A DNA stretch of 64,000 nucleotides, taken from IMG/VR virus record IMGVR_UViG_3300013947_000027, positions 38,033 through 102,032 of that record; one strand, written 5' to 3'. Of the stretch, positions 996-62,600 are shown piece by piece. The notes under the pieces were generated by a model that was given only the letters and a program-made list of their open reading frames with translations, was not told the DNA's origin and searched no databases. Each line of letters opens with the position of its first letter. The first letter of the stretch is position 1. Position numbers and translations under genes: made by a program. The DNA comes from a virus. Taxonomy: Duplodnaviria > Caudoviricetes.

Positions 996-3764
996 TTAGT
1001 ATTGTTCACCTGTAGCAAGATCAGTGTAAACAAGCTTTGGTTTGCGTTCTTTACCAAACACAATTTTAGTAGTGAGGTTATTTGTAGTATCGTTGACTGT
1101 GCCTCCAGCTAAATCTGCAAGAATCTGACGAGCAGTAAAGTCGCCCTTGAGATGATTAAAGACTTTTTCCGTGGAAATTACATCCCAGTCACAATAAGCA
1201 GCTACTTCTTCCCATTTTTCTTCAGGAACGGGTTTGTCCCATGGGAGCCCGAGTTCCTTATGTCCAATGTTGAGTTCGATTTCCCATTTTTTAAGAGACA
1301 TTTTCTTAGCAGCGAAATCGTAAATATCAGTGTAAGAAAGATTATATGCTTCACTGAAGAATGCTTTGTTGCGATCGCCTTTCTCCGCATTGATGATACT
1401 TTGAGACAAATTATATAGCTGTCCGTTGTCATAACCAAGTAGACACGCATACAACATATGATTGTCGTATCTTCTGCAATTGTATCCGACTAGCTTAAAC
1501 TTAAGAAGCTCTTCAATATCCTTAGGTTTCGGATTGATCATTCGAACAACAGGCTTCCCTTCGCCAGCGACTTTCCAGTTAACCAAGAATAGATTAGAAA
1601 ATACTTCGCAGTCGAAGAAGACCAACTCATCCTTCTCAGCATCAACTGCCGCCGAAGGTTCTTCTGACTTGAACTTCATCTTATTAGCAAGCTTAATGCA
1701 GTAATCCGCCTGATTTGTGCTTCCAGCAGCAAAGGCAAAGATCTCATTCTTAAGATCGCTGACATCATAGCCAATACCGCTGCTATACGCATCATCAAGT
1801 AGTTTCGCAATATAATCTACACTGGGCTTTGTTGCAGCATGATACTCTTTGTTAAGATTTCTCTTAATCATTGTGCGCAACATTTTTTCATTTTTAATAC
1901 CATCCCAATTAATCAAACTCTTATCATCTCCTTTCAACGGCAATCCAGAGCTGATCGTCGCAATAGGAAGATTGTTACACTTGGTCAACATTCTTCTAAG
2001 CGAGCTCTTGCCGGTGAATACTTTGATCTCAATGTCATCATCATAAATGCGACTTAACTTAGTAGGATCTCCACTATAAATATAATGGAGATGAATGCCT
2101 GCTCCACTCTTGCTCAATTCCGCATATGTAGGAGGCCACTTCTCAGCCGCTTCGAGATTCTTCTGAAAAGATTTATTGCCAGTTTCATCCCGAATATCAA
2201 AGTCAATGACAATATGATTCTCAGGGACCTTAACATAATGCAGTTTCGAAGTGTCCAGTTTAGCAAGAGTAGACTTTACGTCATCCCATTTCCGAGATGG
2301 AGTTTCCTTGGAAGAAGCTTTCTGAGCAAGACAATCAGCGCATTCCTTGTCAAATACGGAAGGCTGAACTTCCATTTTGAGCCACTCAGGAATAGGCTTC
2401 TCGTCCGTAGCCTCTTTAGTCTCTCCTTCGGATTCCGCAAATTCTTCCGATTTACTCTCACCAGTCTCAAACTTCTCAGTTCTGAAACCACTGTAATAGC
2501 TACGAGCACGCTCACCACTATCGCTAGTAAACCGTTCGTTGAACTCTCGGAAATAGTTCATCAACTCAGATCTGAAGTGCATCTTCGAGAGCGAATAAGG
2601 AACCTTCGCCTCGTCAACGTAGGTCTTATACATCTCCCAAGCAGCCTTCAGTGTCGTTCCGTCATCTCTCTTGAAAATATGATACGAATCTATCATGAAG
2701 TTATAGAAATCGTTGGATGCGCTCATCATCGATGTAGGAATATATTCATCGTACCGGCCGGGATCAGACAAATATACTTCCTTACAATGCCAAGCAATCG
2801 GACCCAACTCAAACTGAACATGCTTCATGAGCTTGTTATACTCTCGAATAGGAATCTTATTACCAGACGGAGTAACATCAATCAGTCGTCTCAAAATACC
2901 AGACTTACCATCTGTAATCTTGACAGGCTTATTCGTACCCATAAACAAGAAACAAACGAAACGATTCTCATACTGAGATTTATGCTTTTCGTTCACGCTC
3001 ATCCATTCGTGAGAAACCACACTGTTAAGACGAGTATTATCCTCAATCTTAGACAGATCGCCATCATGCTGAATAGCAACCAGTGGGTTCTTTTTAAATG
3101 GTTCAAGCGCAAATTGAGCACTGGCGGAACCAAGAGCCTTAGCATCGAATACTGCATGGTAACCGTCAAACAGATCCTGAATAATATTCAGAATTGTCGA
3201 CTTACCTGTACCAGGGCCACCATAGAGAACCAAGAACTTCTGCAGAGTCTTGGAATCTCCAGTAACAATGGCGCCGATAGCCCATTCGATCTTATGCCGC
3301 TCTTCTTCGGTGTAAAGTGTAGAGATAATTTTCTCATAAGCAGGACAATCGCCAGGCTCAAGAGGGTAGCTAAGCCTCTTGCTGGAATAATCCTTCTTAT
3401 TCGTGCCGTCATTAGCAAACAGGAGCTTCTCGTCCAACATATGATAAGAATCTCGAAGCTGCTTCTGACAATACTTATGCCAGCCATCAATCACTCCGGT
3501 TTCGGCATCTCGCATATAGCAAATCCGTACACTTCCGTCGATTTCGCCCTTATGCTCATCGGCGTACTTAGTAAGCTCACGGTCTACCAGCTGCACAACG
3601 TCCTGCTCGTCCGTAGACCACAAGCCTCGATCTTCGACCCACACAGCATAGAAGTCTCCGCCTCTGATCATGAGATCATCCACATGCTTAATTAAGAATT
3701 TGGGATAAATTTCTGTATACCCAGGCTTTTTAATGCGAGTCGATACTGTGAAAAAATCGAGCAT
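996..3764 (-). CDS. SF3 helicase / PrimPol primase / 3'-5' exonuclease fusion
   Basis: Walker A GGPGTGKST; PrimPol motifs VIDFD and SKSGAGIHLHY; exonuclease motifs FDCE, GYNCRRYD, YCDWD. Confidence 0.85.
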   Translation of the reverse strand: MLDFFTVSTRIKKPGYTEIYPKFLIKHVDDLMIRGGDFYAVWVEDRGLWSTDEQDVVQLVDRELTKYADEHKGEIDGSVRICYMRDAETGVIDGWHKYCQKQLRDSYHMLDEKLLFANDGTNKKDYSSKRLSYPLEPGDCPAYEKIISTLYTEEERHKIEWAIGAIVTGDSKTLQKFLVLYGGPGTGKSTILNIIQDLFDGYHAVFDAKALGSASAQFALEPFKKNPLVAIQHDGDLSKIEDNTRLNSVVSHEWMSVNEKHKSQYENRFVCFLFMGTNKPVKITDGKSGILRRLIDVTPSGNKIPIREYNKLMKHVQFELGPIAWHCKEVYLSDPGRYDEYIPTSMMSASNDFYNFMIDSYHIFKRDDGTTLKAAWEMYKTYVDEAKVPYSLSKMHFRSELMNYFREFNERFTSDSGERARSYYSGFRTEKFETGESKSEEFAESEGETKEATDEKPIPEWLKMEVQPSVFDKECADCLAQKASSKETPSRKWDDVKSTLAKLDTSKLHYVKVPENHIVIDFDIRDETGNKSFQKNLEAAEKWPPTYAELSKSGAGIHLHYIYSGDPTKLSRIYDDDIEIKVFTGKSSLRRMLTKCNNLPIATISSGLPLKGDDKSLINWDGIKNEKMLRTMIKRNLNKEYHAATKPSVDYIAKLLDDAYSSGIGYDVSDLKNEIFAFAAGSTNQADYCIKLANKMKFKSEEPSAAVDAEKDELVFFDCEVFSNLFLVNWKVAGEGKPVVRMINPKPKDIEELLKFKLVGYNCRRYDNHMLYACLLGYDNGQLYNLSQSIINAEKGDRNKAFFSEAYNLSYTDIYDFAAKKMSLKKWEIELNIGHKELGLPWDKPVPEEKWEEVAAYCDWDVISTEKVFNHLKGDFTARQILADLAGGTVNDTTNNLTTKIVFGKERKPKLVYTDLATGEQY

Positions 3765-3793: not shown

Positions 3794-4336
3794 TCACTCT
3801 AGACTATTCAAGTACGCCATGAGCTGGTGCCAAATTTCAGCTTCTCTTGCATTGCGTCTCCAACCTCGAATCGTAAATAACCCGCCTTTACCGTTTCGAT
3901 CGTACGTACGATTCAACAACCTCCAGATCGCTTCATCGACAGTTCTCTTATTGAAATTGTAATCACTCATGGAACTCAGACCTAAACTGCTCACCATATC
4001 CCAAAACCATTGAGCAGTTCGATCTCCTTTCTCAGGATTGCACATGATGCGTTCCTCGCATTTAATCGCTAATGCGACCATCATCTCAAGAACACTGCAG
4101 GGCCCATCTAGACAGTATTCCATGCTTTCACAATTATGATAGACGCAATAGCGATATCTGAGTGCAATACCATCTCCTGCTCTGTTCTCATCATATGGAA
4201 CAAAATAGGTGAACTCAGCATCATGGAGGGATGCAAACAGCTTTCTATACGTGATAGATGGCGCAAAGCGTCCTCTGCACATAAGCTGATACATCCACTC
4301 AAAATAATCAGACTTTATCTGATCTTCAATTCTCAT
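3794..4336 (-). CDS. Hypothetical phage protein
   Basis: 180-aa ORF coupled to the upstream gene in the replication operon. Confidence 0.75.
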   Translation of the reverse strand: MRIEDQIKSDYFEWMYQLMCRGRFAPSITYRKLFASLHDAEFTYFVPYDENRAGDGIALRYRYCVYHNCESMEYCLDGPCSVLEMMVALAIKCEERIMCNPEKGDRTAQWFWDMVSSLGLSSMSDYNFNKRTVDEAIWRLLNRTYDRNGKGGLFTIRGWRRNAREAEIWHQLMAYLNSLE

Positions 4337-7309: not shown

Positions 7310-7507
7310 TTATCCTCCTTCAACAATTTTCAACTTTCCAGGAATAGTAATCTTTGATCTAGGCATTCTTCCAGTTTCCATTTTGAATTGATATGCCAGA
7401 TTAGAGCGAGCTTTCTTTTCGGTCGGTGCACGAGTAGAAGCCGACCAACGATCTGCAATGATCCTTTCAAACTCTAAAACAGGACCATTGTAGTAATATA
7501 GGTTCAT
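7310..7507 (-). CDS. Hypothetical protein
   Basis: 65-aa ORF with AGGAG RBS. Confidence 0.7.
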   Translation of the reverse strand: MNLYYYNGPVLEFERIIADRWSASTRAPTEKKARSNLAYQFKMETGRMPRSKITIPGKLKIVEGG

Positions 7508-12820: not shown

Positions 12821-13251
12821 ATATTCCGCTCCCTTGTTTCATTTAGCAGCCAAAAGAACCTTCTGTATCTGTCATAGTACATGTCTTTTCCGCAAGGTAT
12901 TCCCATTGCAGTTCTTAAATAAATGTAAGACCGTTCCTCTGTCACTCCTTTTACAATATAGTCGTGCAAGTATGGGTCTGCCTCAAGCGCAGTCTTTTCA
13001 ATTAACTTAATGCGATCTGAATAAAATACTTTCATCATAGCTCTTTGAGCGATTGGATCACTATCGTTAGGGAAATTATTTGTAGGCGTTGCGTCAACCA
13101 TTGACAGTGGTGGATTCTCATTGGAAAGATCCGAGTAAATCTTTTTCCATTCGGGGTATTGTAAGCAGAAGTGCTTTAATTCGTAATATCGGTGCTTGCT
13201 GATCCAGTATTTGTTCTTTGGCGAAATTTCAGCTCTTATCACAGTTGCCAT
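12817..13251 (-). CDS. Putative transcriptional activator (RinA/ArpU-like)
   Basis: ELKHFCLQYPEWKK start and C-terminal HTH-like YYDRYRRFFWLL; lies in the cro operon. Confidence 0.55.
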   Translation of the reverse strand: MATVIRAEISPKNKYWISKHRYYELKHFCLQYPEWKKIYSDLSNENPPLSMVDATPTNNFPNDSDPIAQRAMMKVFYSDRIKLIEKTALEADPYLHDYIVKGVTEERSYIYLRTAMGIPCGKDMYYDRYRRFFWLLNETRERNI

Positions 13252-13390
13252 TTTGACTTTTCTCCTTCGTTTTATTCTTTCTACATTTCTCTGCTTTCTT
13301 TAAGAAAATAATAGTGGCTTCTTCAATCTTTGTTCGATCAACTTCGCCACGTATTCGAACAATCGCATTCTCATATCTGTATTCTTCTAT
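13229..13390 (-). CDS. 53-aa basic protein with non-canonical ATA start (or GTG 9 nt upstream)
   Basis: Hand-translated (I)EEYRYENAIVRIRGEVDR...; GAGGGTG RBS 6 nt before ATA. Confidence 0.5.
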   Translation of the reverse strand: MEEYRYENAIVRIRGEVDRTKIEEATIIFLKKAEKCRKNKTKEKSQNGNCDKS

Positions 13391-18400: not shown

Positions 18401-19315
18401 TCATGTACGTACTCCATAAACAACAATCCTAATTCCTTCGACACTTGCAGACAGAGTTAGTTCGAATGTGTTGGACATAGCGCCTGCTTTGAGAGTGTTG
18501 TAGTTCACAAACATATTTGTGCTCGTAAATCCAAATATATTCGTATTATTGTAAGCATATGAGATGTCATAGAATTTTCCGTCGTGTAAACAGTACGTAT
18601 TTCTTACGAACGATTCTGCTAATTTCTCGCATATAAATGTGATACTACCAGTAGGATACGCACTACTTGTTTTGTTTAAAAAAGTTTGGTAGTAACATAA
18701 GTCTGCCATATTGTTACCTAAATTAAGATAGGCTTTCTGTACTATAACTTTTGATTCTATTTTAGTGCCACCTATAGTTATAAAAAACATATTATTGTCG
18801 CCTAAATCAAAGTCTACTGCGACATTACTGACCGCTTCCGTCAATTGGACCTCGTACAGTTTTGTTAAAGCAGAAGACCCTCCCCCTCCACTCGGAATGT
18901 TCACAGTAACATTTTCTGTGCCATCATAATATGCGTCGACAGCACCAGTAAAAGTAAGAGGCGCATTGTTAGGAGTCGCATAAAGCGAATCCACGTACTT
19001 CTTATTAGTTGCTTCATAGGGTCGGGTTGGTGTCTCGACATTGAAAATAGTGACTGGTTGATCTGCATTAGATCCATAGAGTGAAAGAACAGGTTTGTTA
19101 ATGCCGTCAGTCTCGGTAGACTCAGAATACATCAAAACGCCATCAATATTCCCAGTCTTGAGTTCTATTTGTTCTGTCAAAAGCGTTTTGCCAGGCATAT
19201 TAATATTACCAGTAACCGTGCCGCCAGTTTTGTCAAGTTTTTTGTTCATCTCAGCTGCCGCTGGGTTAAATTCGTCATAAGTTTTTCCACCTATAGTTAG
19301 ACTTTTCATTTCCAT
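18401..19315 (-). CDS. Tail fibre / receptor-binding protein
   Basis: Fibre motifs KLDKTGGTVTG, ATNKKYVD and LTFTGAVDAYYDG. Confidence 0.65.
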   Translation of the reverse strand: MEMKSLTIGGKTYDEFNPAAAEMNKKLDKTGGTVTGNINMPGKTLLTEQIELKTGNIDGVLMYSESTETDGINKPVLSLYGSNADQPVTIFNVETPTRPYEATNKKYVDSLYATPNNAPLTFTGAVDAYYDGTENVTVNIPSGGGGSSALTKLYEVQLTEAVSNVAVDFDLGDNNMFFITIGGTKIESKVIVQKAYLNLGNNMADLCYYQTFLNKTSSAYPTGSITFICEKLAESFVRNTYCLHDGKFYDISYAYNNTNIFGFTSTNMFVNYNTLKAGAMSNTFELTLSASVEGIRIVVYGVRT

Positions 19316-19441
19316 TTTGAACTATCACCTCTTAATCTTTAACTATAGTTGCCGGGAGAACAGCCGTACCTAGACTAGATATATAATTAGCATCGTTCCC
19401 TAACTCAGAAGTCTTAGTAGGAATGATGAAATTTTCAAAAA

Positions 19442-21547
19442 TTAATATGCAGTGTCGGTTCCGTCTGGAATATTTCGAATCTGGCTCCATTGGATAGTGA
19501 AACCTGCAGGTAAAGGACCAGATCCTTTTCCAGAGAGGTATAGAGCATCGTTTTGCAGTTCAGAAACTTTGGTAGGAACATCTGCGCTTGTAATATATCC
19601 AGAATCATTTGTTAATTGCGAGGTTTTAGTCGGGAGTTCTGTTTTCTTAGCATAGTTGCTAAGAACATCGGCAGTAAGTACTTCATTTGCTTTTACATAC
19701 CCAGCATCATTCTCAAGCTGGGAAACTTTAGTAGGAAGATCTGACTTCTTAGCGTAATCAGTCAAGGAAGGATCGGTAGAGGCACCAGAGCTGTCGGTTT
19801 CAAATGTGCAAACCCAGGCGCTCCATTCGTAAAGGCCAGATGTATCTAATCCTCGGATTCGCTCAAATACTTGAGTTCGAGCTGGAATAAATGTGTTAGT
19901 TATTGTCAGCCTCTGTTTTACTTCGTGAGAGCCACTTTTGAATACCTCAATGCAGAAGCCATTGCTAGCACTTGAACTAATTGGAAAGTTTGAGAAATTA
20001 GCTGGCACACCATTTCCATAATAGAAATTCGGAAGCACTACATCGTTAAGATCCGTACCACTCTCAATAAGAATAGGAGTAATACCACCGGTGAACTTGG
20101 TGCTCATACCAATGTCAAGCGTATCATCAAGCTCAGCAGCTTTGCCAATGCCAAGACCCTTTCCGTTTGCCTTCCAATGCATAATTGAATAGGCAGTCGC
20201 AACTTGGGCTATAGCAGTGGCCGTATTAAATCCATCATAGACAGTCAGTTTGATCTCATAAGAGGTTTCTGTGTCTGCCTGGAATGTCGCCTCGGCCTTA
20301 ATACTATCATCTGTAACAAGCGAGTTAGGGAAATACTTTTGGGCTTCGATTGAAAACAGCTCTGTCCATGCAGAGTTACCATGCTTTCTGTAATAGGCTT
20401 TGGTCATCGCAGGCTTACCATCGTCGTAACCATAATCAGTATTCCAGAAGCCGGACTCATACGCAGGATGCACTCGAATATAAGATCCGCGATCATTTGC
20501 CGTACCATCACTATCGCATCTCTCGCCGACAAGTTTAGTAATCTTGCACAACGGACATTTAAGAACACTAATAGTCTGAGTCACAGTTCCAGTTCGGCCA
20601 CGCTTGTCAACTACAGTAGCAGTAACTGTGACGTTGCCGTATGAAGTAGGAGCGCTCATAGTTACACTCTGACCACTATAGCTGGCATTACCCATTTTGA
20701 CTGTAGACGTTGCAATTGTAGAACCATATGCTCCAGTAAAGGCAACGTTCGCTTTTACCTTTGTAACATTCTGGATGTACACGGGATGCTGATTCCACCA
20801 CGTAGAATCGTAGTAGTTGGTAATCATAGGAACACTTTCAAGGATGATTCTGCAGCTAGGGGCAACAGTATCAGGAATAGAGTAAAATACTGTCTTAGTC
20901 GAGTTTCCAATATTCGTGTCACCAGAATATGTAGTGATAGCGAAAGTCAGAGAAACTACTGTACCTGTAGTATTCTCACTAGCCAATGTCAGTGGAGGAG
21001 TCCAACTAATACTTGTTGAAGAAGACTTCGTAACCACGGTTCCGGTCGTTAATCCGCAAGTATACGTGATTGTATGCGTAAAGCTACTGCTCTGTCTTGT
21101 AACGGTCAATGTCTGTGCTTTTCCAAGTATGCCATCGCTTGCACTAAGAGTAGAGATACGAGGAATTCTATCAAGCTGGAATGTACCAGACCCAGTCTTA
21201 TTAGGTGTCCAGTCATAAATTCCCGCGGTCACAGATACAGAAAACGACTTGTTGCCATCCGAATTATGCGCAATAGTCAAACTACCGCTGCCGACAACAG
21301 TTCCGTTATAAAGCTTAACTTCAGAACTATCTCCTTGCGAGTTAAGCACAGTAACACCATTGATAACTACTGTGAAGTTTCTAGCATAACAATATGAGAA
21401 AGAAGCCGAACCAGCACCTTTCAGTGTCCAAGAAATTGTCGTAGTGTTATTAGCAATACTCTGAGAAACCTGTGACCAGGAGAGGACTAAATGGCGTCCA
21501 CTATAACCGGTCGTACTTACACTTCCACTAGAAGCCATATTAGCCAC
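19442..21547 (-). CDS. DUF859-like minor tail / host-specificity protein B
   Basis: SQSIANNTT, RCDSDGT, GKGLGIGKAAE; C-terminal PTKxSxLxND repeats. Confidence 0.7.
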   Translation of the reverse strand: MANMASSGSVSTTGYSGRHLVLSWSQVSQSIANNTTTISWTLKGAGSASFSYCYARNFTVVINGVTVLNSQGDSSEVKLYNGTVVGSGSLTIAHNSDGNKSFSVSVTAGIYDWTPNKTGSGTFQLDRIPRISTLSASDGILGKAQTLTVTRQSSSFTHTITYTCGLTTGTVVTKSSSTSISWTPPLTLASENTTGTVVSLTFAITTYSGDTNIGNSTKTVFYSIPDTVAPSCRIILESVPMITNYYDSTWWNQHPVYIQNVTKVKANVAFTGAYGSTIATSTVKMGNASYSGQSVTMSAPTSYGNVTVTATVVDKRGRTGTVTQTISVLKCPLCKITKLVGERCDSDGTANDRGSYIRVHPAYESGFWNTDYGYDDGKPAMTKAYYRKHGNSAWTELFSIEAQKYFPNSLVTDDSIKAEATFQADTETSYEIKLTVYDGFNTATAIAQVATAYSIMHWKANGKGLGIGKAAELDDTLDIGMSTKFTGGITPILIESGTDLNDVVLPNFYYGNGVPANFSNFPISSSASNGFCIEVFKSGSHEVKQRLTITNTFIPARTQVFERIRGLDTSGLYEWSAWVCTFETDSSGASTDPSLTDYAKKSDLPTKVSQLENDAGYVKANEVLTADVLSNYAKKTELPTKTSQLTNDSGYITSADVPTKVSELQNDALYLSGKGSGPLPAGFTIQWSQIRNIPDGTDTAY

Positions 21548-45314: not shown

Positions 45315-45348
45315 TCATTTTCACTCCCATTTTGAATTTTATAGAAGA

Positions 45349-47316
45349 TTAGCCGCCAATTTCACTAGCGGCGACCGGCTGCTCCAGAGCAATAGCAGCA
45401 TAGACATCAGTCAGAGCACCAGACAGACGGGTCTCCATCAGGTACTTGTACTGGTTGAAGTCAATGTCGAAGTCTTCGAAGCTAGTGATCTCGCCACCCT
45501 TGGTGGAACCGAACTGATAGTTTGCCATGTTAACAAAGATGCCGAGCAGGTTGAACTTCTTGCCAGTCTCGTCGGTCTTAGCAGGGTCAGCCTCACGGCT
45601 CAGACCTTCCATCTGTTCAACAGTGTAGATGTTGTTGACACGGAGAACCTTCGCAAGATCAGCAGCGGAGTCATAGATACGACGGCCATTCAGGTCACGA
45701 GCAAGCAGCATGGTGTTCAGGAGATGCGGCGTGCAGTAGAAGTCGGGAGTGCCCTTAGCCTTGTACTTCTCACGAGCATGCAGAGAAGCAGCGATAATAG
45801 CCTCGGTCTGGATATACTCATCGCCAAAGTTAGCGCTGGTGTTAGTACCCTGCAGCTTCGTCTTCATACCCTCGATATCAACAGAAGCCTTGATGGTGTA
45901 CAGATCAACATCCTTCCACACCGGACGGATATGATCCTCAGAGATCTTGTCCTGATCGGTATCCTGACGGCCATCGCCAATCAGAGCAGCCAGCGCGACT
46001 TCCTCTTCGAGGTTGCGCTTCATGACATTACGCTGATAAGCGACAACGTCGAAATCGGTGATGTCGACAACATCGTCACGATGAAGAGCATCACGGAAAT
46101 AAATGGTCTGCGGGTCAGTGGTACGCATGAGAACCTTCAGGTTAGCAGAGATAGTCTTCTCCTTGTCGCGCTTGGAGTAACCCTTAGCACGGATCTCAGC
46201 GGCACGAGCGTCAATCTGCTTCGTACGGACACGGGAAACCGGGCTCTTGCGGGCCTTGGACAGGACCTGGTCAACCCAGTCATGATCACGCTCGAGCAGT
46301 TCCGGAGCGCCAGGATAAACATCCTTGTAATCCGGGAACAGCTTGCCAACCTCAGAAGTCTCAAAGCCATGAGCCAGAGTATCCTTGTGATCATCAGCGA
46401 AAGCTTCGATGGCGCTCTTCAGGGTCATACCAGGAGCCTTAGCCATCTTCAGAATTTCCTCCTGGTCTGCATGAGTCAGAACATTTGCCTGCTCCTCGGC
46501 CTCGCGATTGAAAACGTTAGTATACATAGTGTCATTTCCTCCTTCAGAATGTTTAATATTTTCGGACTTATTGTCTTCCTCGGCGTTACCTTCATCATCG
46601 GACGCGCCGGCGTCTTCGGCGACCTGAGAGAGTAAGAAGTAAAGGACTTTCTTCTGCTCTTCATTAAAGGTGTCGAGCACGTCCTTAACAGTCTTCTCGT
46701 TTTCAGGCTCCTTCTTCGGCTCTTCAGCCTTGACCTCTTCCTTCTTTTCTTCCTTAGGATCTGCCATCTTAGATTCCTCCTTGCCGGCACCTTCGCCGTC
46801 TTTGTCATTGCTAGCATGAGCGAGTGTTTCCTCTTCCTCGACAGTCTCTTCTTCAGCATGAGCGAGTACTATATCTTCGCCTGTGAAAATAATACCTGCC
46901 TCGTCAGAGTCATCACTGTGACACATGATAGTATCGATGTATGCGCCGGGATTGGCACCAGCCAGAACCAGGCTAACTTCACGGATCACACCGTGAACAA
47001 CATTACCACCCTGCTGTTTGAGCTGGTTGGCATAAATAGAGAGCTGGTTCACATCACCATGCTTAACCAGTTCTCGTCCCATCTTGCCAGACTCGCTGTC
47101 ATTGAATGTACAATAGGCGTAAACGCCTTCAGGTCTATTCTCGAGCAGAGCATGGCCCAGGACATTATCGACTTCGGTATGCTGATGATTCCAAACAAGC
47201 GGAACCTGAGCACCATCATTGTCGATAAAAGCGTCCTTCATGATCGTTCGACCATCGGAGCATCTCTTATTGACAACTGTGGCCCAACCACCAAAGTCAT
47301 AGTTATTAACTACCAT
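45349..47316 (-). CDS. Prohead protease-scaffold-major capsid fusion
   Basis: HK97-type protease motifs PLVWNH, LSI and REVSLV..ANP; acidic linker; capsid C-terminal domain. Confidence 0.9.
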   Translation of the reverse strand: MVVNNYDFGGWATVVNKRCSDGRTIMKDAFIDNDGAQVPLVWNHQHTEVDNVLGHALLENRPEGVYAYCTFNDSESGKMGRELVKHGDVNQLSIYANQLKQQGGNVVHGVIREVSLVLAGANPGAYIDTIMCHSDDSDEAGIIFTGEDIVLAHAEEETVEEEETLAHASNDKDGEGAGKEESKMADPKEEKKEEVKAEEPKKEPENEKTVKDVLDTFNEEQKKVLYFLLSQVAEDAGASDDEGNAEEDNKSENIKHSEGGNDTMYTNVFNREAEEQANVLTHADQEEILKMAKAPGMTLKSAIEAFADDHKDTLAHGFETSEVGKLFPDYKDVYPGAPELLERDHDWVDQVLSKARKSPVSRVRTKQIDARAAEIRAKGYSKRDKEKTISANLKVLMRTTDPQTIYFRDALHRDDVVDITDFDVVAYQRNVMKRNLEEEVALAALIGDGRQDTDQDKISEDHIRPVWKDVDLYTIKASVDIEGMKTKLQGTNTSANFGDEYIQTEAIIAASLHAREKYKAKGTPDFYCTPHLLNTMLLARDLNGRRIYDSAADLAKVLRVNNIYTVEQMEGLSREADPAKTDETGKKFNLLGIFVNMANYQFGSTKGGEITSFEDFDIDFNQYKYLMETRLSGALTDVYAAIALEQPVAASEIGG

Positions 47317-47351
47317 TTTGACTTTTCCTCCTTACTTCTAGATTTGTATTA

Positions 47352-49297: not shown

Positions 49298-51061
49298 TTA
49301 CTCAAATAAATCTTTATTAAGCTTCCATGCCACAAAGGCATCAAGCATAGACGCCACAGGGTCAATTTTGGCCTCATGACGTTTCTTTAAAAGTTTTCGG
49401 TTACCGTTTGTGTCTTCCATGGTAATTGCATTGCCCATGGCAAAAGACATAAGTTGCTCGTCGAACAACAAAGCTCTTTGCTCAGCAAGTTTCTTAAGCT
49501 CACCAAGAGGCACAGACTCTGTCTTAGAGCCCTGAATAACTTTCTCGACACCAAACGGACCATTTTCCTGTTCCCATCGCTGAACAAATTCTCTAGCGTT
49601 ATACGGGTCATATCCAAATGATCTGACGTCATACTGGTTCTCATTTATGTGATGGTCAAGATCCTCATAAACTTCCATCATATCCAGAACAGTGCCAGGC
49701 ATGACAATCAGACTACCTTCTGCAATGAATTCTTCATACTTCTGTCGCATAGCACTCGGGAGTCTTGATAATGTGTATTCGGTTATATAGTTGCGAGTCT
49801 TAATGCCGAATTCTCCTCGAGACAGTGGAAATAGAAATACGAAGGAACAGAAGTCATCACCCTGCGACAAGTCGGCTCCCATAGAACAAGCCATTTGCCA
49901 ATAACTTCGTCTTCGCTCATGTGGAAGGGTTTCGTCATAAGTGAAGAAATAGGTATAGCCTTCCATAGGGATGCCGAAACGTTTTGCCAGAATATCGTTA
50001 CGTTCAGAAGGAACTTTCTCAGCTTTCTCAACAGCTAGCTGATAAGTTTCATAAGTAACCGTATGATTAATGTTCGGCTGGGCCTTGATCCACATTGCAG
50101 GGTCATTTACTTCATCGATGGAATCAAGTTTATACCACCAAATGGATGTATGAGGATTCGGATACTCTCCCTTAAGGATCTTCATCAATTCCATTTTGAT
50201 TGTATCGCCACTGCCATTACGGACAGTACCTTCTGAGCTGATTGCAATAATCAGCCAGTCGTTATCTTCACCGGAACCCTGCTCCTTAGTTGCACCCTGT
50301 TCGAGACACTCGATAGGATTTTCTCGGACATCGCCAGAAAGCCATTCGTCGACTGTAGCAATCTTTACTCGAAGGCCTTGTAACGCGTCAATTCGCATAG
50401 GACGAACTTCGACCATAGAGTTGGTAAGGAAGTTTTGAATGCCTTTCTTTGTAGAGGCCAGCTTGACTCGGTTTTCTTTCGAGCCAGTAGTGTTTTGGAG
50501 GGAACCTTCAGTGAGGAAACGGAATAGAGGCCCTCTTGCTCGCGCAATAGAGGTTCTGATTGGGCTCATGACTTCGTCTGCCTGTTTCATCGTAGGAGCA
50601 GTACAGACTTGGTATGTGGTGCTCGTGTCGACATTTAAGAAGTAGCTCTGAATAAGAGAAGCATACATCGACTTAGCTCCACCACGAGCAACGATCAAAT
50701 ATTGTTTGTTGATAAGACGCTTCTTAATTTGTTTTGTGATCCAACGGCCACCGTGATTACCCTTGGATGGTACATAAACACTTCTTTCGACGAAGTAATA
50801 CCAGCCAAAGACCTGCTCTGCCCAGAGTTTAAACGAATCAAGAAGCTTCAAATCCTCGCCATTTGTTAGTGTAAGCTCATTCTCGCAATAAGCTATAAAC
50901 CCATCGATAGCTTTATCGTCATAGTAAATGCCTGGATTGGCGATGAGCTGATCGATACGGTTCATCTCCATCGAGATCTCTTTGCAAACTGGAATCTCTC
51001 CTCGAAGAACTTTATCGCGGAATTCTCCATAGTATTTTGGTGTAGCAGTGTTAGAGAGCAT
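49298..51061 (-). CDS. terL: Terminase large subunit
   Basis: Walker A ARGGAKS, Walker B ATVDE; nuclease motifs GADLS, GYDPYN and KIDPV. Confidence 0.95.
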   Translation of the reverse strand: MLSNTATPKYYGEFRDKVLRGEIPVCKEISMEMNRIDQLIANPGIYYDDKAIDGFIAYCENELTLTNGEDLKLLDSFKLWAEQVFGWYYFVERSVYVPSKGNHGGRWITKQIKKRLINKQYLIVARGGAKSMYASLIQSYFLNVDTSTTYQVCTAPTMKQADEVMSPIRTSIARARGPLFRFLTEGSLQNTTGSKENRVKLASTKKGIQNFLTNSMVEVRPMRIDALQGLRVKIATVDEWLSGDVRENPIECLEQGATKEQGSGEDNDWLIIAISSEGTVRNGSGDTIKMELMKILKGEYPNPHTSIWWYKLDSIDEVNDPAMWIKAQPNINHTVTYETYQLAVEKAEKVPSERNDILAKRFGIPMEGYTYFFTYDETLPHERRRSYWQMACSMGADLSQGDDFCSFVFLFPLSRGEFGIKTRNYITEYTLSRLPSAMRQKYEEFIAEGSLIVMPGTVLDMMEVYEDLDHHINENQYDVRSFGYDPYNAREFVQRWEQENGPFGVEKVIQGSKTESVPLGELKKLAEQRALLFDEQLMSFAMGNAITMEDTNGNRKLLKKRHEAKIDPVASMLDAFVAWKLNKDLFE

Positions 51062-52035
51062 CAGTCATCATCCTTTGGTGCTGGCAGATAGCCATAAATA
51101 TTAGGAGATGGCAGGCTGTACACCGGAGTATCGTTGTATCTAGAAGTCCAGGAACTTCCGTAAGAAGAATTATTGCTACTCGAAGACGCAGATCTATTAG
51201 AGTAATTGTCAACAACTTCCGCTACAACTCGCTCAGCACGTGTATTGCTAGAGCTATTTGACGAACCGCCTCCGCCACTCTTGGACTTCTTAGATTTCTT
51301 TCTCTCGCCACTCACACTGTCATCATAAACACTGGCTTTGGTTGTAGTCTCAGCGCTCTGTTTCTCCTTCTGTGCTTCCTGTTTTGCCTTTTCTTTCTTA
51401 ACATTTTTATCAATGGTGTCTTTAGACTTTTTTGCTTCATTACCAAGGATCTTCGAACCCGCTTCTCCGAGATACTGCTTGAGAAGGTTCTTACCAACCT
51501 CAGTAGCTGCAGGAGCAACAACTTTACCCATCACAGATTTCATAAGTTTCTTAGCGGCATTTTCCTTCTTAGGATGAAGCTGATTATTAAGATCTTTAAC
51601 GTCTTTCTGTAGAGCAAGATATGTCTTCTGCTTAGTCAGTTCAGCAATCTGATAGTCAATGTCGCTCTTCGGGCCATCATAGCCTAATTTCTTAGAAAGC
51701 TCCCTAAAAGAATCTTCCTGACGAAGCCTGATAACTTTCTGCATCAATTCTTGGTCTGTCATCTTAGACAGCTGATCATTGAGATAATCGTCAGAAGTTT
51801 TAGCTTTGGGAGTTTCTTTTTCGGCAAGTTTAATAGAGTCGCCGAATTTCTTCTTACCCTTTTTATTAAGAGTTCCGTCTGGGTTGAGATAGCGCTTCTT
51901 GCCAGCATCAGTCAGCGTTCCATCTGCATTTTGGTATCTACGAACGCCCCACTTCATGCCTTTAATGCCCCAATGGTAGAGTTCATCGGTGCTGACAAAG
52001 TTGCCAGATGGAGTAAGAATGTATTTAGTATCCAT
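51061..52035 (-). CDS. 'ELYHWGIKGMKWGVRR' family protein with basic, Ser-rich tail
   Basis: N-terminal motif plus RYQNADGTLTDAGKKRY. Confidence 0.8.
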   Translation of the reverse strand: MDTKYILTPSGNFVSTDELYHWGIKGMKWGVRRYQNADGTLTDAGKKRYLNPDGTLNKKGKKKFGDSIKLAEKETPKAKTSDDYLNDQLSKMTDQELMQKVIRLRQEDSFRELSKKLGYDGPKSDIDYQIAELTKQKTYLALQKDVKDLNNQLHPKKENAAKKLMKSVMGKVVAPAATEVGKNLLKQYLGEAGSKILGNEAKKSKDTIDKNVKKEKAKQEAQKEKQSAETTTKASVYDDSVSGERKKSKKSKSGGGGSSNSSSNTRAERVVAEVVDNYSNRSASSSSNNSSYGSSWTSRYNDTPVYSLPSPNIYGYLPAPKDDD

Positions 52036-52057
52036 TTTGAATTTTCGCCTCCTCTAC

Positions 52058-53515: not shown

Positions 53516-53932
53516 TTATCGTTTCCAAGGACAGGTGTCATTTTTTGTCCTTGTAATAGGTGCTCTAATAAGCAAGTTTTCATCGCCATAGTGAATGGCA
53601 TTGTGAGTGTTATGAGAGACACAGATGAGATACTCAGGATTCAGGAGAATACTAGTAAGATTGATGATGTCTTTGTCGCTTATAGGATTCATATGATGAA
53701 TAAGGATCTTTCCGCCGATCAGTCTATCTTCAATTCCTAAGTCGCATCCATTATCTCGGATAATTACTTGATCTCTGACTCGTTTCCAAGCTGCAGATCT
53801 ATAGAAATTTTGATTCAAGTATCGGTCAAAGCCGAACGTTTCCTTTCCGACTGCGCCGTTTAACTGCAGATACTTAAACCTTTCTTCAAATGTAGGAAGA
53901 GCAATTAATTCAGAGTAAGTTCTAGTAATCAA
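53516..53932 (-). CDS. Terminase-associated HNH endonuclease
   Basis: WKRVRDQVIIRDNGCD...IHHMNP...HNTHNAIH; likely TTG start after GAGGAG. Confidence 0.8.
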   Translation of the reverse strand: MITRTYSELIALPTFEERFKYLQLNGAVGKETFGFDRYLNQNFYRSAAWKRVRDQVIIRDNGCDLGIEDRLIGGKILIHHMNPISDKDIINLTSILLNPEYLICVSHNTHNAIHYGDENLLIRAPITRTKNDTCPWKR

Positions 53933-54299
53933 TGTAATCCTGCTCCTCTTCCTCACCGCTATCTCCACCATGACCGCTGTATTTCCGCATAGCTGCGATT
54001 GCTTCATTGTAGAGTTTCTTGATGTCAGCCTGATCACGAAGGGCCTGAGTTTTAGCTCGAATCAGCTCATTCTCAAGCTGGGCTCTCTCGGAGTCTAGTT
54101 TTGCTTTGGTGGATGCCAGTTTAAGATAATGGACTGTCTCCTGTGCGGAGGCTGTGCCGTCTCTTAAACGCTGCTCAACCAGATCAACTGCAAGAGATAT
54201 CATCTGGTTTTCTCGAGACTGAGGATTTAGTGCCGGTCGAATTGGTTTGAGGTCGCTAGCACTAGGCGGGGTCGGATTCTTAACTTTTGCCACGGTCAT
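53922..54299 (-). CDS. Putative terminase small subunit
   Basis: First gene of the packaging operon; 125 aa, helical/coiled-coil. Confidence 0.5.
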   Translation of the reverse strand: MTVAKVKNPTPPSASDLKPIRPALNPQSRENQMISLAVDLVEQRLRDGTASAQETVHYLKLASTKAKLDSERAQLENELIRAKTQALRDQADIKKLYNEAIAAMRKYSGHGGDSGEEEEQDYIDY

Positions 54300-55460: not shown

Positions 55461-57767
55461 TTATTCCAATTTAGCTGAAGCTACAATATGGAGCGCACTC
55501 GTAGGAACAACGTTAGACTCTGATATTTCTACAGCACCAGCTGGCATTATCATAAATCGGACAGCATCAGCATCGGAATAGCCCGTCTGTTTGCTTATAT
55601 CAATTACCCACTCTTTAGAAGTGTTATCTGTTGATAGCGCAAGATTATTCGTATAGTTAACGCTTGTTATTGTATTGTTTTTAAGGAATGCGATCTTATG
55701 GAATACTGGTTCGCTTATGGTATACGCACCACCATAGCCTGACATATGCGCACCATTTACCTTGAGGTAACGGTACTTGGACATATCAATAGAAACCGGC
55801 GCACAGATGTATGACCCAAGTCCATCTATAATACTGGTTCCGCTGTATTTCTTATTGAGAGATACATTTTGATTACTATACAGCTCGACATCAGGTACTT
55901 CTAACGTTCCTGTCTGCGGCATTTCCGCATCATAAGTCACATATGCATTAGCGCCCTCCGCCACGGGGATTGTAAACCTGATGTATTTATATGTTGCGGG
56001 GAAATCGCTGTTGAAGGTAACTTTGTACACGTTGCTCGACTCCTGCTCCCATGTGCATTGCGCAAAATGCGAAGACGCTGAAGTAGTGAGAATATAGCTG
56101 GCCGTAGACATCACCTTTTCGGAGTTATAAAACACAACTGCTGTACCGCCAACTCCAGCATCGGCTGGTGCAGTGAGTGGCCTAATTCTAACAACAGACC
56201 CCGCCTTGCAAGGAATGAACCCAGTGACACACGAGCTGGTATTATCTTTCTCTACGCCAGTCGACGTGGGCAATCTCTTACCATTCGTATACCCGACTGC
56301 TGCCTGCGAAGCACCTCCAACCTTGAAACTATCAGTCAGAATATTCGGCGCAACACCACCGCTTTCGACGGTGCTAATCGTAATAACAAGATCACCAGTG
56401 ACTCGCGGAATAGCGATTTTACCTCCAGAATAATAATTTGACACGTCTATTCCTCCCATTGTGATTGATACGGTTGTCCCGTCGAGTTCGTACCCAGCAT
56501 CAGCGGTAATATTTGCACCATAGGACTGACCGTCAATCACTCGGAGCAGTGTGTTGTCGGTAAAACAGTTGCTCAAATTGAGGGTTACCTTTCGGTACAA
56601 TTCAGTCTCATCGCCTTGCCACACCTCGGCAGTGATGTCAACCCCGTTCATCTTTACGCTCACGGAACTGATTGTCTTTCCATTTTCGGCAGAAATCACA
56701 GCCTCATATGGCTGGTACTGTGTCACTTCAGTCGCAGCGTTGTCGGTAGTTACCCCTGCGAGCGTGTTAGTCACGGCAAAGGTCGATATGCTCGGCGTCA
56801 CCGTCTCCGGTGTTCCATCGATCATCGCCTTGCGGTACGCATTGATCTCCGCAGCCGTAAACCCGAGTTCAGCAACAAATGTAACGCACTTATCACGGAA
56901 AGTGCTGCCAGACTTAGTGTTGATCGCTGAGATTAAACCTTTCCATTCGCTTTCATTTCGCCTACGGGCATTCGCATCGGTATCCGAGCCGCTGTAAAAA
57001 GTCGTCAACTCATAATCTTTGTCAATGTCGGACTGACTCATACCAAGTAATCCCTCAAGTACACAAGCCAACGTACCAGTCCGATCTGCACCAGCAGCGC
57101 AGTGGAAATACACCGGTTCGCCATGTGTAACTGCATCGAACACACACTGTAAATTGATACGCCATGCCTCTGTATTTGTCAGAGAATACCAATTGTATGC
57201 ATCAGCCTTGACAAAGTAAACGTCATCTCCAAGCGGAGATTTTGTCCATGTTGCCTCTGCAGAACCGCGTAGATTAAGGTCATATTTAATGCCGAGTTCC
57301 TTCACGAGCACGTTATAATCTGCGCTAGACGGTTCACCGCCTCTAAAAAGCAACCCGTATTTTACAGTACCGCCATCACAAGCCCAGCCGCCAAGGTCTC
57401 GCACATTCCAGGTGTTCGTCTGAATATAGCGCAAGAAATCCAATGGTTTTAATGTGCCGGCAATCCCGGTTTCTGCAAAGGGTGTCGCTACCCCAGGAAC
57501 CTGATTGTAGTAAGTCTTCCCGCCTAAGGTTTTTCCGATAGGTCGGTAGTTACTAACTACTGCCGTAGCAGGGGCATAATTGGCGATCTGCGACGTACTA
57601 TAATCACTCGGATCATAGGTTACAGCAGCAAGATAATTTCTAACCGCTTCAGGGCATTGATGCCACTCTACATTTTCAACGCCACTCCCAGAATCTACAT
57701 CCACCTGCACAACTTTGCCGTTAGCTACCAGCGGTTTATCGCCAATGTATACTGTTTTTGTTGCCAT
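55461..57767 (-). CDS. Protein-tyrosine-phosphatase-fold protein with Ig-like/beta-rich C-terminal domains
   Basis: NVRDLGG, LNLR, HCAAGADRTG (CX5R loop), DYELT. Confidence 0.85.
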   Translation of the reverse strand: MATKTVYIGDKPLVANGKVVQVDVDSGSGVENVEWHQCPEAVRNYLAAVTYDPSDYSTSQIANYAPATAVVSNYRPIGKTLGGKTYYNQVPGVATPFAETGIAGTLKPLDFLRYIQTNTWNVRDLGGWACDGGTVKYGLLFRGGEPSSADYNVLVKELGIKYDLNLRGSAEATWTKSPLGDDVYFVKADAYNWYSLTNTEAWRINLQCVFDAVTHGEPVYFHCAAGADRTGTLACVLEGLLGMSQSDIDKDYELTTFYSGSDTDANARRRNESEWKGLISAINTKSGSTFRDKCVTFVAELGFTAAEINAYRKAMIDGTPETVTPSISTFAVTNTLAGVTTDNAATEVTQYQPYEAVISAENGKTISSVSVKMNGVDITAEVWQGDETELYRKVTLNLSNCFTDNTLLRVIDGQSYGANITADAGYELDGTTVSITMGGIDVSNYYSGGKIAIPRVTGDLVITISTVESGGVAPNILTDSFKVGGASQAAVGYTNGKRLPTSTGVEKDNTSSCVTGFIPCKAGSVVRIRPLTAPADAGVGGTAVVFYNSEKVMSTASYILTTSASSHFAQCTWEQESSNVYKVTFNSDFPATYKYIRFTIPVAEGANAYVTYDAEMPQTGTLEVPDVELYSNQNVSLNKKYSGTSIIDGLGSYICAPVSIDMSKYRYLKVNGAHMSGYGGAYTISEPVFHKIAFLKNNTITSVNYTNNLALSTDNTSKEWVIDISKQTGYSDADAVRFMIMPAGAVEISESNVVPTSALHIVASAKLE

Positions 57768-57781
57768 TTTGAATTTCTCCT

Positions 57782-59610: not shown

Positions 59611-62600
59611 TAGAAGCTCACCCCATTCGCATTACTAAGTGCCAGTGTAAGCTGGCCTTGATCATTGAATTTGATTGTGGTGCCGTCTACGGGGATAGCT
59701 TTGATTGAGTCATCGACGTATTTCTTAGTAGTAGGGTGATAATCTAATGTTGGGGTGAATGCTGTAGTGTTTGTCGTTGTAAGAACATCGACCGCTTTCC
59801 AAGAAATCGGTTTGTGATCATTCCATGCTTGGACTGATAAAATAGAACCAGTTTTTATGTCACTGTCATTGAGTACATTAAAAATACCATCGCAGTCAAA
59901 GGACTGGAACTCCCAGACTCCTTTAAAGGAGCTATCAACGGATGTAGCGCTTAGTTTGGCTACGATAAGATTATCAGCAGTATACCCAGAAGTTGAGAAT
60001 ACTAAATTATATTTGTCTTTAACCTCATTATAATGCCAGTTAATAAGGATTAGTCCGTATACATTATTTACCACCCTCAGACCTTGATTAGCCGCATCAT
60101 ATATTTCTTTTGCTGTTTTATTGGACGTCCAGTGACTTGGTCCGCTAACAAAATCAACAAGGAACGATTTAGTATTCAATTCAATTTCCTTATCCATCAC
60201 GACAGTATCTGTTGCGCCATTTTGACCTTGAGTGATTTTAAGGCGTTTATAGACACCGTTAGTGGTGGTGGAGAAATAGAGTGAGGGAATATTAGACGAA
60301 TCTTCCTCAGCAAATTCATAGTGGTATGTTTCGCCATCATAAAATAGAGGACAGATGACTTGCGGGTTGTTGTTCGGCATCTTTAGGAATCCAGCACAGA
60401 ATGCAACAGTATTTGTCGGGTCACATGTGAGTGTTCCGTCGTCAGATTTGCTGACTGTTACGGCTTTAATGTTTGGAAGTAGGGTGTTTGTACTGATTGC
60501 GCAAGTAAACTCGATACTAGACGAGCCAGCGCTATATTGCATATTCATATAGTCAGCACTTAGTACAATACCACCGAATCCCTCAGGCGCCGCACTTTCG
60601 TCAATGACCATAGGATATATGGTAGTCCAACGCATATTAATACCTGTGATTTCGCCGCTACTATTTTTCGTTACATTCAAAGCATTCGGAGATAGTAGCG
60701 AGTTGTCCCAGGCTATAGCATAGTCGTTCGGATTCTCGGTCTTCGCAGCAGCTGCTTTGACTTCGTCCCAAGTTCGATCTGTAGACCAGGTTTTGGTATC
60801 TTGGTTGTAAGTTGGGGTGATGATAAATGGTTCTGATGCAGAGATGTATTTTGAAGGAATTTTATGAACAGTAGGATTTCCGACAAGAAAACTGCATTCC
60901 TTTTCTGGATATACAGTAACCACGCTTCCTACAATAACTTGTGCGCTATCGGTTAACTTGTAAAACCATACGCCATCGCTAAATGTTGGGGTAATATCCG
61001 GATATATAACACCATCATATTTAATGGTAAGAGTTTTGCCATATCTGCTAGAATTAGCTCCTCCAACAATATTACACCACATCTCATAATTAGCCGGGTA
61101 TTCTTGAACCTTATCCTCGTAATACATATCAGGAATATATCTAGGATCTATACTATTTGGATTCGGCTCAAACAAGCGTAATTTTACTGCGCTTTCGTTT
61201 ACAAACTGGCAATCGTTTTTATATAAAGAGTGAGTCGAATATATGCAGAAAGGGGGATCATTGGCAAGCGACCCAACATATAGATTACCTTGCGGATCTC
61301 GTTTGACAACTTGATCAAAGTTTAGAAAACTATATGTCTTTCCACTAGTACTGGTATAATATACATAGGCCTTTTGACCAAGAATCATTGGAATCTCATC
61401 ATGCTCTACGTTGTATTTATAATCTGACGTATGCGTCATGTTCGACGTTGGAACTCCAGCATCGTAATCTGTATATTTTGTTCCATTTACATATTCGCTG
61501 TAGTCCTGTCCACCACCTTCAAAAGTCCAGGTGATGGGGGAAAGGACTCCACTATGTTTATATGTAAAATGACCCTTTTTACCGTCAGCTGTTGAAATCA
61601 TATAGGTCCAGGTTGGCATGCTATCATAGATAATATTAATTCTAGTTACGACAACAGGAAAATTGCTTTCGGTTAAACCAAGTATTTCAACAGTATCATC
61701 TGCCGACCCAAATATCATTGTTTGGCCATCATTGCTAACAAGCGATCCGCTTAGTGCGTCCTCATTAAGTACATCTTTATTACCGCCGGCAATATTACGT
61801 CGAATACATAGCAACCCATCCGTGTCGATTGCTGTGTCGTAACTGGAATACCACTTTTTATCATCATCTGACATACTGGACTGATCGTTTAAGTTAAAAT
61901 AACGGCTTACACTCACTGTGCCTCTACCAGAAGATTTTATCTTAGTGGGGTCTGCTAAAGGTAACAAATCTGACGGAATTTCGACCGGATAAGTAATTGT
62001 TAAATATACTTCATCAGGGAGAATAACGCAATCTATGCTGCTTGTGTTTAGAAAATATACTTTAACTCCTTTTGAATAACTTGAATCATTCAATTCGACA
62101 TTGATAGCCAGTTTGTCTTTAACTTGAATCCAGCCAGTAGTATAAGCGCCTCCAGTTGAAATACTCCAGGATGGAGCGTATCGTTTTTCCTTATAATACA
62201 AATACGCACTACATGTTTCATTCGCAATGCCGTTCATCATATCCGCAAATATGGTATCATCGTCTGAAAGTGTCATGTAGTGCATTTCGGCTGGGAGAAC
62301 ATTAGGTGCTATAGTGATAGTAGTGTTATTCTTTGCAGCTTCTTTTTCTGCGTAATGCCCAATCCTATTCTTCACATAACTAGGATCAGTTTCATCGTTT
62401 ACGCTCCAGTCAGCATGTGGAGCATCTACCCACTGATACTCGTAGCGACGGCTCTGCCATTTGTTATCAATAACACCTTCGCCAAGATCAACTGTTGTAA
62501 GCATCTTACCGACTTTATCAGCAGACGGTTTGCCGAGAGAAGTGGCGTTATCTGGAACAGTCGAAATAACCTGGTCAAGATGAACAGAGATAATTACATC

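Follow-up and report, generated by a model that had tools for sequence, protein, structure and literature searches.

Localized single-strand interruptions, or nicks, are known from the DNA of a few groups of tailed phages. In tf and LUZ24 the nick word is 9 bp long and occurs in 9-14 copies on one strand, at comparable positions in related phages, 11 of 14 copies falling within the genome's left half and the LUZ24 copies lying at 4-65% (PMC3517423, PMC11780129). The word is common to 61 phages with little DNA similarity and is found both inside and outside genes (PMC3517423, PMC11780129), and in tf substitutions at three of its positions abolish nicking (PMC3517423). The T5 nick consensus is short and is present also on the strand that carries no nicks, and that of phiKMV-like phages is long and bipartite (PMC3517423); the title of a preprint speaks of four nicks in one phiKMV-like phage. 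It has also been demonstrated that HNH enzymes encoded next to phage terminase genes are site- and strand-specific nickases (PMC3592412). The present study deals with a 9-mer, TCAAAATGG when read along the gene direction (hereafter X), which recurs on one strand of the IMG/VR virus record IMGVR_UViG_3300013947_000027 (G000; 102,032 bp in all). The window analysed is the right-hand 64 kb of that record (64,000 nt, record positions 38,033 to 102,032), and on its plus strand the same word reads CCATTTTGA. Coordinates called oriented refer to the genome read in the gene direction, starting from the left cos end. By analogy with the systems described above, X may be a recognition site for programmed single-strand nicks, a tentative reading to which we give rather less than an even chance.

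An exact, strand-exclusive and evenly spaced word

The word CCATTTTGA occurs 19 times on the plus strand of the window and 0 times on the minus strand. An earlier sequence-only reading of this DNA had listed these 19 copies and none on the other strand, and all of them were confirmed as exact matches. Its estimate of fewer than one copy by chance also holds, as dinucleotide shuffles of the window gave 0.83 +/- 0.97 copies with a maximum of 4. The whole record contains 20 copies on one strand, spanning record positions 37,823-98,249, and the 20th copy lies 209 nt to the left of the window. Of all 9-mers in G000 X scores highest, above the words of the ribosome-binding site (RBS). The zone occupied by X extends over 3.7-63% of the genome from the left cos end. 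The first 37.8 kb of the record contain 0 copies despite mostly same-strand genes there, so that X fills about 60% of the genome and not all of it. The claim that it punctuates the whole genome thus does not hold for the 102,032-bp record, 38 kb of which are free of X.

Within its zone X is evenly spaced. The gaps between copies measure 1237-6064 bp, in agreement with the 1.2-6 kb given earlier, and their coefficient of variation is 0.46 vs 0.94 under random placement (P = 0.0002). The presumed tape-measure open reading frame (ORF) of 9.3 kb carries three copies, 2.7-4.1 kb apart. Even spacing, together with three copies in this one ORF, indicates that the requirement concerns distance and not particular genes. 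No hairpin or terminator was found beside X, and its flanks show only weak A-rich and purine preferences, owed in part to RBS contexts, with no extended consensus.

The sequence-only reading had taken X for a polar, dispersed signal selected on the nucleic acid, and had proposed a codon-preserving shuffle and a comparison with relatives as checks. When proteins and per-gene codon usage were kept, shuffled genomes contained 8.5 +/- 1.4 copies (maximum 12) against the 20 real ones, and 0.19 copies on the other strand. At aligned places in three relatives X was exact in 9 of 12, 6 of 12 and 7 of 11 cases, where the flanks are 55-80% identical and neighbouring 9-mers are conserved at only 5-10%. 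Among 124 copies from nine related genomes, coding copies are read in the frames Q-N-G (41), K-M-x (35) and S-K-W (14), and 34 copies overlap an RBS-led start codon. The same mixture exists in the window, as had been noted: the five start-codon copies (13248, 19312, 47313, 52032 and 57764) are all RBS-led, one copy is intergenic (45327), and the rest are coding in three frames. In the gene of family phrog_4338 the copy of one close relative (G003) lies 12 nt upstream of the G000 place and a more distant gut contig (G006) has both copies; such local turnover indicates that presence near a place is selected, and not the peptide. X shows no link with gene boundaries except where its placement is cheapest, for instance in the RBS-ATG spacer. 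Frame independence, codon shuffle, conservation above flanks and local turnover all bear out selection on the nucleic acid, and it is shown that X is kept by selection on the DNA itself as an exact, strand-exclusive and evenly spaced word.

The exactness of the word is pronounced. Exact X is 23-fold enriched, whereas words with one mismatch number 17 vs about 19 expected, and those conserved in relatives are 0 of 6, 0 of 8 and 0 of 7. The six TCATTTTGA variants reported earlier are indeed present at their places, but since variants occur at chance number and are never conserved, the TCATTTTGA copies stand outside the signal. From these sequence comparisons recognition of X looks all-or-none. 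Avoidance of the reverse orientation as such is marginal (0 seen vs 3.1-3.8 expected), and some relatives have reverse copies outside the zone.

The copies at start codons raise the question of a function in mRNA, where X could be a site for a translational repressor or an endoribonuclease at start regions, comparable to those of T4 RegA/RegB. The 34 of 124 copies that overlap an RBS-led start codon, among them that of the capsid gene in almost every relative, would suit such a function. However, about three-quarters of the copies lie within genes, where each of the three frames is represented, and in a close relative (G004) one X keeps the genome-wide orientation inside the reverse-strand integrase gene, where it is antisense. 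A role in mRNA is therefore very improbable, and cheap placement accounts for the start-codon copies, since such sites have an ATG in any case and the sequence of the spacer can vary freely.

The copies in the window are collected in Table 1, in which G002-G005 are close relatives of G000 and G006-G009 are gut contigs resembling Faecalibacterium phage FP_oengus. In the genomes examined in detail three places are near-universal: within the terminase gene, at the capsid gene's start codon and in a small gene beside the major tail protein gene.

Table 1. Copies of X in the 64-kb window (window coordinates; strand is that on which the word reads TCAAAATGG)
Feature	Position	Strand	Context and conservation
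X	2372..2380	-	In helicase/polymerase gene 996-3764, frame K-M-E; kept in G002, G003, G005
X	7378..7386	-	In small ORF (~7310-7507); kept in G002 only
X	13248..13256	-	ATG starts 144-aa gene 12817-13251, divergent from repressor gene; kept in G003, G004
X	19312..19320	-	ATG is start codon of 304-aa gene 18401-19315
X	20692..20700	-	Within 701-aa gene 19442-21547
X	24285..24293	-	Within 629-aa gene 23291-25180, frame Q-N-G
X	27233..27241	-	Within 838-aa gene 25165-27681, frame Q-N-G
X	28470..28478	-	Within 580-aa gene 27683-29425, frame Q-N-G
X	30279..30287	-	In 358-aa gene 29432-30508; exact in G002-G005, flanks only 54-65% identical in G003-G005
X	33358..33366	-	172 nt short of end of presumed 3110-aa tape-measure gene 33192-42524; copy at equal distance in G003, G007
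X	37460..37468	-	Within presumed tape-measure gene, frame K-M-G
X	40132..40140	-	Within presumed tape-measure gene, frame Q-N-G; exact in G002-G005
X	43333..43341	-	In 182-aa gene 42916-43464 (phrog_4338), frame S-K-W; one of three lineage-wide places
X	45327..45335	-	Intergenic, between capsid fusion gene and next gene (start at 45314)
X	47313..47321	-	ATG starts capsid-protease fusion gene 45349-47316; same place in Tanis, Moozy, FP_oengus, G002-G009 (G005: one letter off)
X	50191..50199	-	In large terminase gene 49298-51061 (..D-T-I-K-M-E-L..); same place in all relatives with this terminase, including 61%-GC Moozy
X	52032..52040	-	ATG is start codon of 324-aa gene 51061-52035
X	57764..57772	-	ATG starts 768-aa gene 55461-57767 (tyrosine-phosphatase domain)
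X	60217..60225	-	In 1399-aa gene 59610-63809; copy nearest left cos end

A word private to a phage lineage

To judge from its genes, G000 is a temperate siphovirus. It encodes a large terminase, a portal, a capsid-protease fusion, a serine integrase, a repressor, an endolysin and a helicase/polymerase gene that is apparently split by an HNH insertion; the 3110-aa ORF presumably encodes the tape measure. At its left end in the oriented sense, CTTTGATATTTCTCCGGGGG..., the genome shows homology to the corresponding ends in the complete records of Gordonia phage Tanis, Streptomyces phage Moozy, Lactococcus phage P092 and others, and the contig is thus probably a complete linear cos genome. In actinophages the right end holds a conserved block, ..GGGG-TC-CGC..CCCCC..CTGCATCGCC.., and the ends of the G000 contig match the cos ends of cultured relatives. 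Remains of the Nextera adapter were seen on the contig ends of G006 and G003, in G006 directly against the cos-proximal CTCCGGGGG.

A tally of X was made in 18 genomes, namely G000, G002-G009, FP_oengus (first 50 kb), P092, Tanis, Moozy, Circum, Stayer, Gordon, ReqiPepy6 and DrGrey. It gave 176 forward copies vs 0 reverse, with 10.3 and 3.8 expected. The forward/reverse counts are 18/0, 18/0, 15/0 and 14/0 in the close relatives G002-G005, 11/0, 11/0, 9/0 and 8/0 in the Oengus-like gut contigs G006-G009, 11/0 in FP_oengus and 6/0 in P092. Among phages of Actinobacteria they are 5/0 in Tanis (51% GC), 3/0 in Moozy (61% GC; 0.01 expected), 4/0, 5/0 and 5/0 in the Arthrobacter phages Circum, Stayer and Gordon, 9/0 in Rhodococcus phage ReqiPepy6 and 4/0 in Streptomyces phage DrGrey. 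Five more Oengus-like gut contigs showed 11/3, 8/1, 10/1, 12/0 and 10/0 (51 vs 5 in total), the reverse copies lying outside the X zone. X is identical in all 23 members of the lineage that were checked. Measured from the left cos end, its zone covers 8.5-27% of the genome in Tanis and 8-22% in Moozy. A 9-mer that stays unchanged while phages have moved between Actinobacteria and Firmicutes points to a very constrained reader that is encoded by the phage.

Polarity and copy number of X resemble those of host words of the Chi or KOPS kind and of the stoperators bound by an immunity repressor, and both Chi-like sites and L5 stoperators had been listed as precedents by the sequence-only reading. 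A relative (capsid 51% identical) exists in an isolate, Eubacterium ramulus strain 21, where 14 one-strand copies of X were found (locus L124; G011 contig C232:33.7-58.3 kb); for that branch it is a clue to a host among Lachnospiraceae. In the 3.5-Mb genome of this strain there are 34+32 = 66 copies of X vs 27+34 = 61 of a control word, and 14 of the 66 are the one-strand copies that lie within 25 kb of the phage contig. This background-level count in the host genome of a relative rules out a host Chi/KOPS word; moreover, the same X is present in phages of Actinobacteria and Firmicutes, hosts that are not expected to share Chi. As for the stoperators, X is present in Tanis and Moozy, for which the annotation lists neither integrase nor repressor, in P092, and in phages with unrelated repressors, and homologues of the G000 repressor were found only in G003 (69%) and G004 (38%). 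The L5 precedent is thus unlikely and a stoperator of the L5 type was ruled out on these grounds; taken together, a host word or a stoperator is hardly credible as the identity of X.

X belongs to the phage lineage alone and travels together with its packaging and structural genes. In G010 the helicase/polymerase gene is 68% identical to that of G000, but this genome has a different structural module, lacks both the YonO-like polymerase and the HNH gene on the terminase side, and contains only 2 copies of X; it should be noted here that G010 is recorded as a provirus and that some host DNA may be included. A search for recombinants with the polymerase and another structural module gave too few loci to be of use. 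The case of G010 is relevant to the possibility that X marks the starts of lagging-strand priming on the displaced strand during unidirectional or rolling-circle replication, the primers being made by either the helicase/polymerase protein or the RNA polymerase of the phage. A requirement based on distance, with even 1.2-6 kb gaps that run through long ORFs as well, and one genome-wide polarity would both be expected of priming sites. But about 38 kb of G000 are without X, the word follows the structural and not the polymerase module, with the above caution on the provirus record, and in the helicase/polymerase protein Pfam gives only DUF5906 and no primase domain. In our estimate priming starts, which correspond to the primase sites among the precedents of the sequence-only reading, have a low probability.

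The YonO-like polymerase was described as a signature of an actinobacteriophage supercluster plus the Lactococcus/Faecalibacterium group, in a preprint that reports the polymerase and no promoter (bioRxiv 10.1101/842583). We found it in 250 phage records, a set that nearly equals the carriers of the capsid-protease fusion. In G000 the homologue is a 1011-aa protein encoded outside the window, at genome position 303-3338 (-) (L119:303-3338), with a C-terminal helix-turn-helix (HTH) like that of sigma-70 region 4; it is homologous to the 'RNA-dependent RNA polymerase' of FP_oengus. The gene is the one nearest to the right cos end, in the actinophage relatives too. In ReqiPoco6 the homologue is annotated as 'structural protein', a hint that the polymerase may be carried in the virion.

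Possible readers of X and a second polar word

If X is a site for programmed nicks, it would be read by a strand-specific DNA enzyme encoded by the phage, which would put nicks in one strand of the left genome part, presumably the part that is packaged first. These would be nicks of the kind called localized single-strand interruptions, as in T5-, phiKMV- and tf/LUZ24-like phages. The candidate nickase would be the small HNH protein encoded beside the terminase gene (53516-54037), acting alone or with the terminase. This gene, 53516..54037 (-), belongs to phrog_4321 (E = 3.6e-63), and no Pfam model matched its product at E <= 0.001. All X-bearing genomes tested contain homologues (39-59% identity) and G010 contains none, and such a conserved HNH gene adjacent to the terminase gene would speak for nicking.

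Several observations favour nicks: X is asymmetric and exact over 9 bases, confined to one strand, all-or-none, at places that are kept, in all frames as well as intergenic, one-sided in the genome and not a word of the host, and its copy in the reverse-strand integrase gene of G004 follows the genome-wide orientation. Among the classes explained by experiment, only the tf/LUZ24 nick word agrees with the form of X feature by feature. Of the precedents listed in the sequence-only reading, the T5-type nick proved to be the best formal match, although the cutting at X, the enzyme, the strand that is cut and the purpose of the cuts are what we infer by analogy only. In its interpretation as a whole that reading is partly supported.

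A number of points weigh on the other side. The known HNH nickases on the terminase side read 3-7 bp and not 9 (PMC3592412). The HNH protein, the YonO-like polymerase and the terminase are all co-inherited with X, so that comparative genomics singles out no reader. Nick words of the tf type are described as uneven, whereas X is significantly even in its zone. Homology breakpoints between relatives are no nearer to X than random positions; mosaic boundaries not being near X, there is no sign of recombination stimulated by nicks, and by the same test X as a recombination hot spot was ruled out. Finally, the remainder of every genome is occupied by a second polar word, T, which nicking at X leaves unexplained.

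The terminase itself could be the reader without any nick, X being a packaging checkpoint or a signal that slows the translocating enzyme, comparable to the polar cosQ of lambda. X is co-inherited with the terminase, which is the most conserved of the proteins compared (72-93% among gut relatives, about 73% to actinophages), and it lies in the left genome part. At the left cos end (window 63,900-64,000) an X-like word with an A-run is found next to a GC palindrome, CCCCG-CGGGG, along with a T word. That word, however, differs from X in having five A's and another last letter, and internal one-letter variants are not conserved. No multi-copy signal of that kind is known to us, and we regard this explanation as quite unlikely.

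T is about GATATTT, or TT[GT]ATATTT on the coding strand. It is strand-specific, and it occupies the X-free part of every genome of the lineage, being denser and more degenerate than X. Its forms are CATATTTG in Tanis, TGATATTT in FP_oengus (33/0) and CGATATTT in Moozy. In the window it is present on the plus strand as AAATATAAA / AAATATCAA between 1 and ~17,000, with three copies at ~14,850-16,650 within the lysogeny module. Where the integrase and repressor genes of lysogeny modules run on the reverse strand, T within them holds the genome-wide orientation; of the three tRNA genes found, two have a T word directly at their 5' ends. In actinophages the boundary from X to T falls inside the block of tail genes, and the two zones are thus positional and not temporal classes. 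An apparent exchange near the end of the tape-measure gene, where gut phages would have X in the slot that holds T in Tanis, was dropped since the alignment was too poor.

A longer, promoter-like motif, TTCGCG-N14-TATTATG(G/A)(G/A)A, is present in about 26-29 coding-strand copies before cassettes of small genes, in the window at ~4,300-17,100 and in the genome at 1-38,000; an example is at oriented 51,406, which is window ~12,560-12,595 (-). It is recognisable in Tanis (TTCGCA..ACACGTCCTATAATGAGACCCC, 11 copies) and in P092 (CCCTATAATG, 9 copies), and being alike in these two phages it is presumably read by a polymerase of the lineage's own.

X could also be a signal for the YonO-like RNA polymerase or for a host polymerase redirected by a phage factor, either as a short late promoter like those of T4 and phiKZ or as a promoter-like pause site that is read on the non-template strand while the long left arm is transcribed. 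The 1011-aa polymerase has the sigma-region-4-like HTH, and its gene lies before the cos junction, so that it adjoins the left end when the genome is circular; the first X is then 3.8 kb in. TTCGCG-N14-TATTATGR is absent upstream of oriented 46.9 kb, that is from all of the structural block, which therefore needs another signal. X is co-oriented with the genes, G010 is without the YonO-like polymerase and nearly without X, and CAAAAT agrees with a -10 hexamer in its A and T. On the other side, 22-27% of X copies overlap a start codon, and a transcript begun there would lose that codon. The 1-150 nt upstream of starts show no enrichment of X, one 9-kb ORF contains three evenly spaced copies, and no upstream element and no hairpin were found at X. 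Variants are usually tolerated by promoters and not by X, and the zones of X and T are not temporal classes, as the boundary in the actinophage tail block shows. The score of X in a promoter-core matrix is at percentile 0.50 compared with other ATG-centred words, and a likeness to a promoter core was ruled out on this ground. A transcription signal is therefore a somewhat unlikely identity for X. It would be a long shot to combine the two words, with X (sparse, exact, left) and T (dense, degenerate, right) as two classes of start sites for a YonO-like polymerase that doubles as replicative primase in phages where we found no primase domain; if true, priming and transcription would be hard-wired into one strand across a supercluster that spans phages of two bacterial phyla.

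The lineage comprises about 250 sequenced and mostly cultured phages (of Arthrobacter, Gordonia, Streptomyces, Rhodococcus, Lactococcus and Faecalibacterium) in addition to many contigs from gut metagenomes. In the searchable open-access literature we found no mention of X or of any motif, nick or transcript map for it, and a search with the word itself gave unrelated matches only. If programmed nicking at X is true, it would no longer be limited to a few phage groups of Gram-negative hosts but would include a large supercluster of siphoviruses of Gram-positive hosts, and many easy systems would become available for the 50-year-old question of what nicks are for. If X is not a site for nicks, the lineage has an undescribed cis-signal within its most conserved genes.

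Some further features of the genome were observed. A gene for a homing-type HNH endonuclease (window 458-1063, minus strand) is located between the ORF at 996-3764 and an ORF that leaves the window start, and the flanking ORFs may be the two halves of one polymerase gene. The 922-aa ORF (996-3764) matches the first 923 of 1304 positions of phrog_4210, the downstream ORF has 434 aa, and FP_oengus and Tanis annotate a single gene of 1280-1340 aa. The replication-side module includes three paralogous DUF6353 / phrog_2152 genes (window 5686-6624, 7949-8737 and 8984-9796, minus strand), of which FP_oengus also has three. At the left end (window 55,461-63,809, minus strand) there are cargo-like genes encoding a 1399-aa protein of no family, a 251-aa protein with BspA-type leucine-rich repeats and the 768-aa protein with a tyrosine-phosphatase domain. 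These are absent from G004-G009, and G002 and G003 match only part of the 1399-aa gene; two copies of X lie among them at the usual spacing.

Comparison with known systems

Late promoters such as TATAAATA of T4 and TATG of phiKZ are short strand-specific words present in tens of copies in late regions, and they are read by a non-standard transcription apparatus. They are situated upstream of genes at the starts of transcripts, whereas X overlaps start codons or lies deep in ORFs. The stoperators of cluster A mycobacteriophages (L5) are many asymmetric sites, in one orientation with respect to transcription, which are bound by the repressor and vary with the immunity group. X in contrast stays the same in temperate phages that have unrelated repressors and in phages whose annotation lists none. 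Chi of RecBCD/AddAB, as in Chi-rich phages, is like X a polar word (of about 8 letters) that occurs once per few kb, but unlike X it is over-represented in the host chromosome.

Closer parallels could be found among the nicking systems. The interruptions in T5/BF23 and in phiKMV-like phages are one-strand nicks at fixed places defined by sequence; they are encoded by the phage, and their function is still unexplained. To these X may be likened by analogy, though X is sharply defined over 9 bases and reaches 20 copies. With N.phiGamma and its relatives and HK97 gp74 the lineage shares a small HNH gene by the terminase/cos region, and those enzymes nick one strand at an asymmetric sequence (PMC3592412). 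Their known specificities are 3-7 bp long, in contrast to the 9-mer X, for which the phrog_4321 protein is a candidate reader.

The nearest likeness is to WACTRTGAC / TACTRTGMC, the word of tf, LUZ24, PaP3 and Rembedalsseter. Like X it is an asymmetric one-strand 9-mer of which less than one copy is expected, with about 9-14 copies per 45 kb as compared to 3-20 for X. Both words are found at similar places in relatives of low identity, in genes as well as between them, both are one-sided in the genome, and in both single substitutions are not tolerated. On the other hand, nicks have been physically shown in tf/LUZ24, whereas X is known from sequence; those phages are podoviruses and the present ones cos siphoviruses, and the words themselves are unrelated. 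Unlike the tf/LUZ24 word, X is evenly spaced in its zone, spans phages of two host phyla and is accompanied by a second polar word that fills the rest of the genome.

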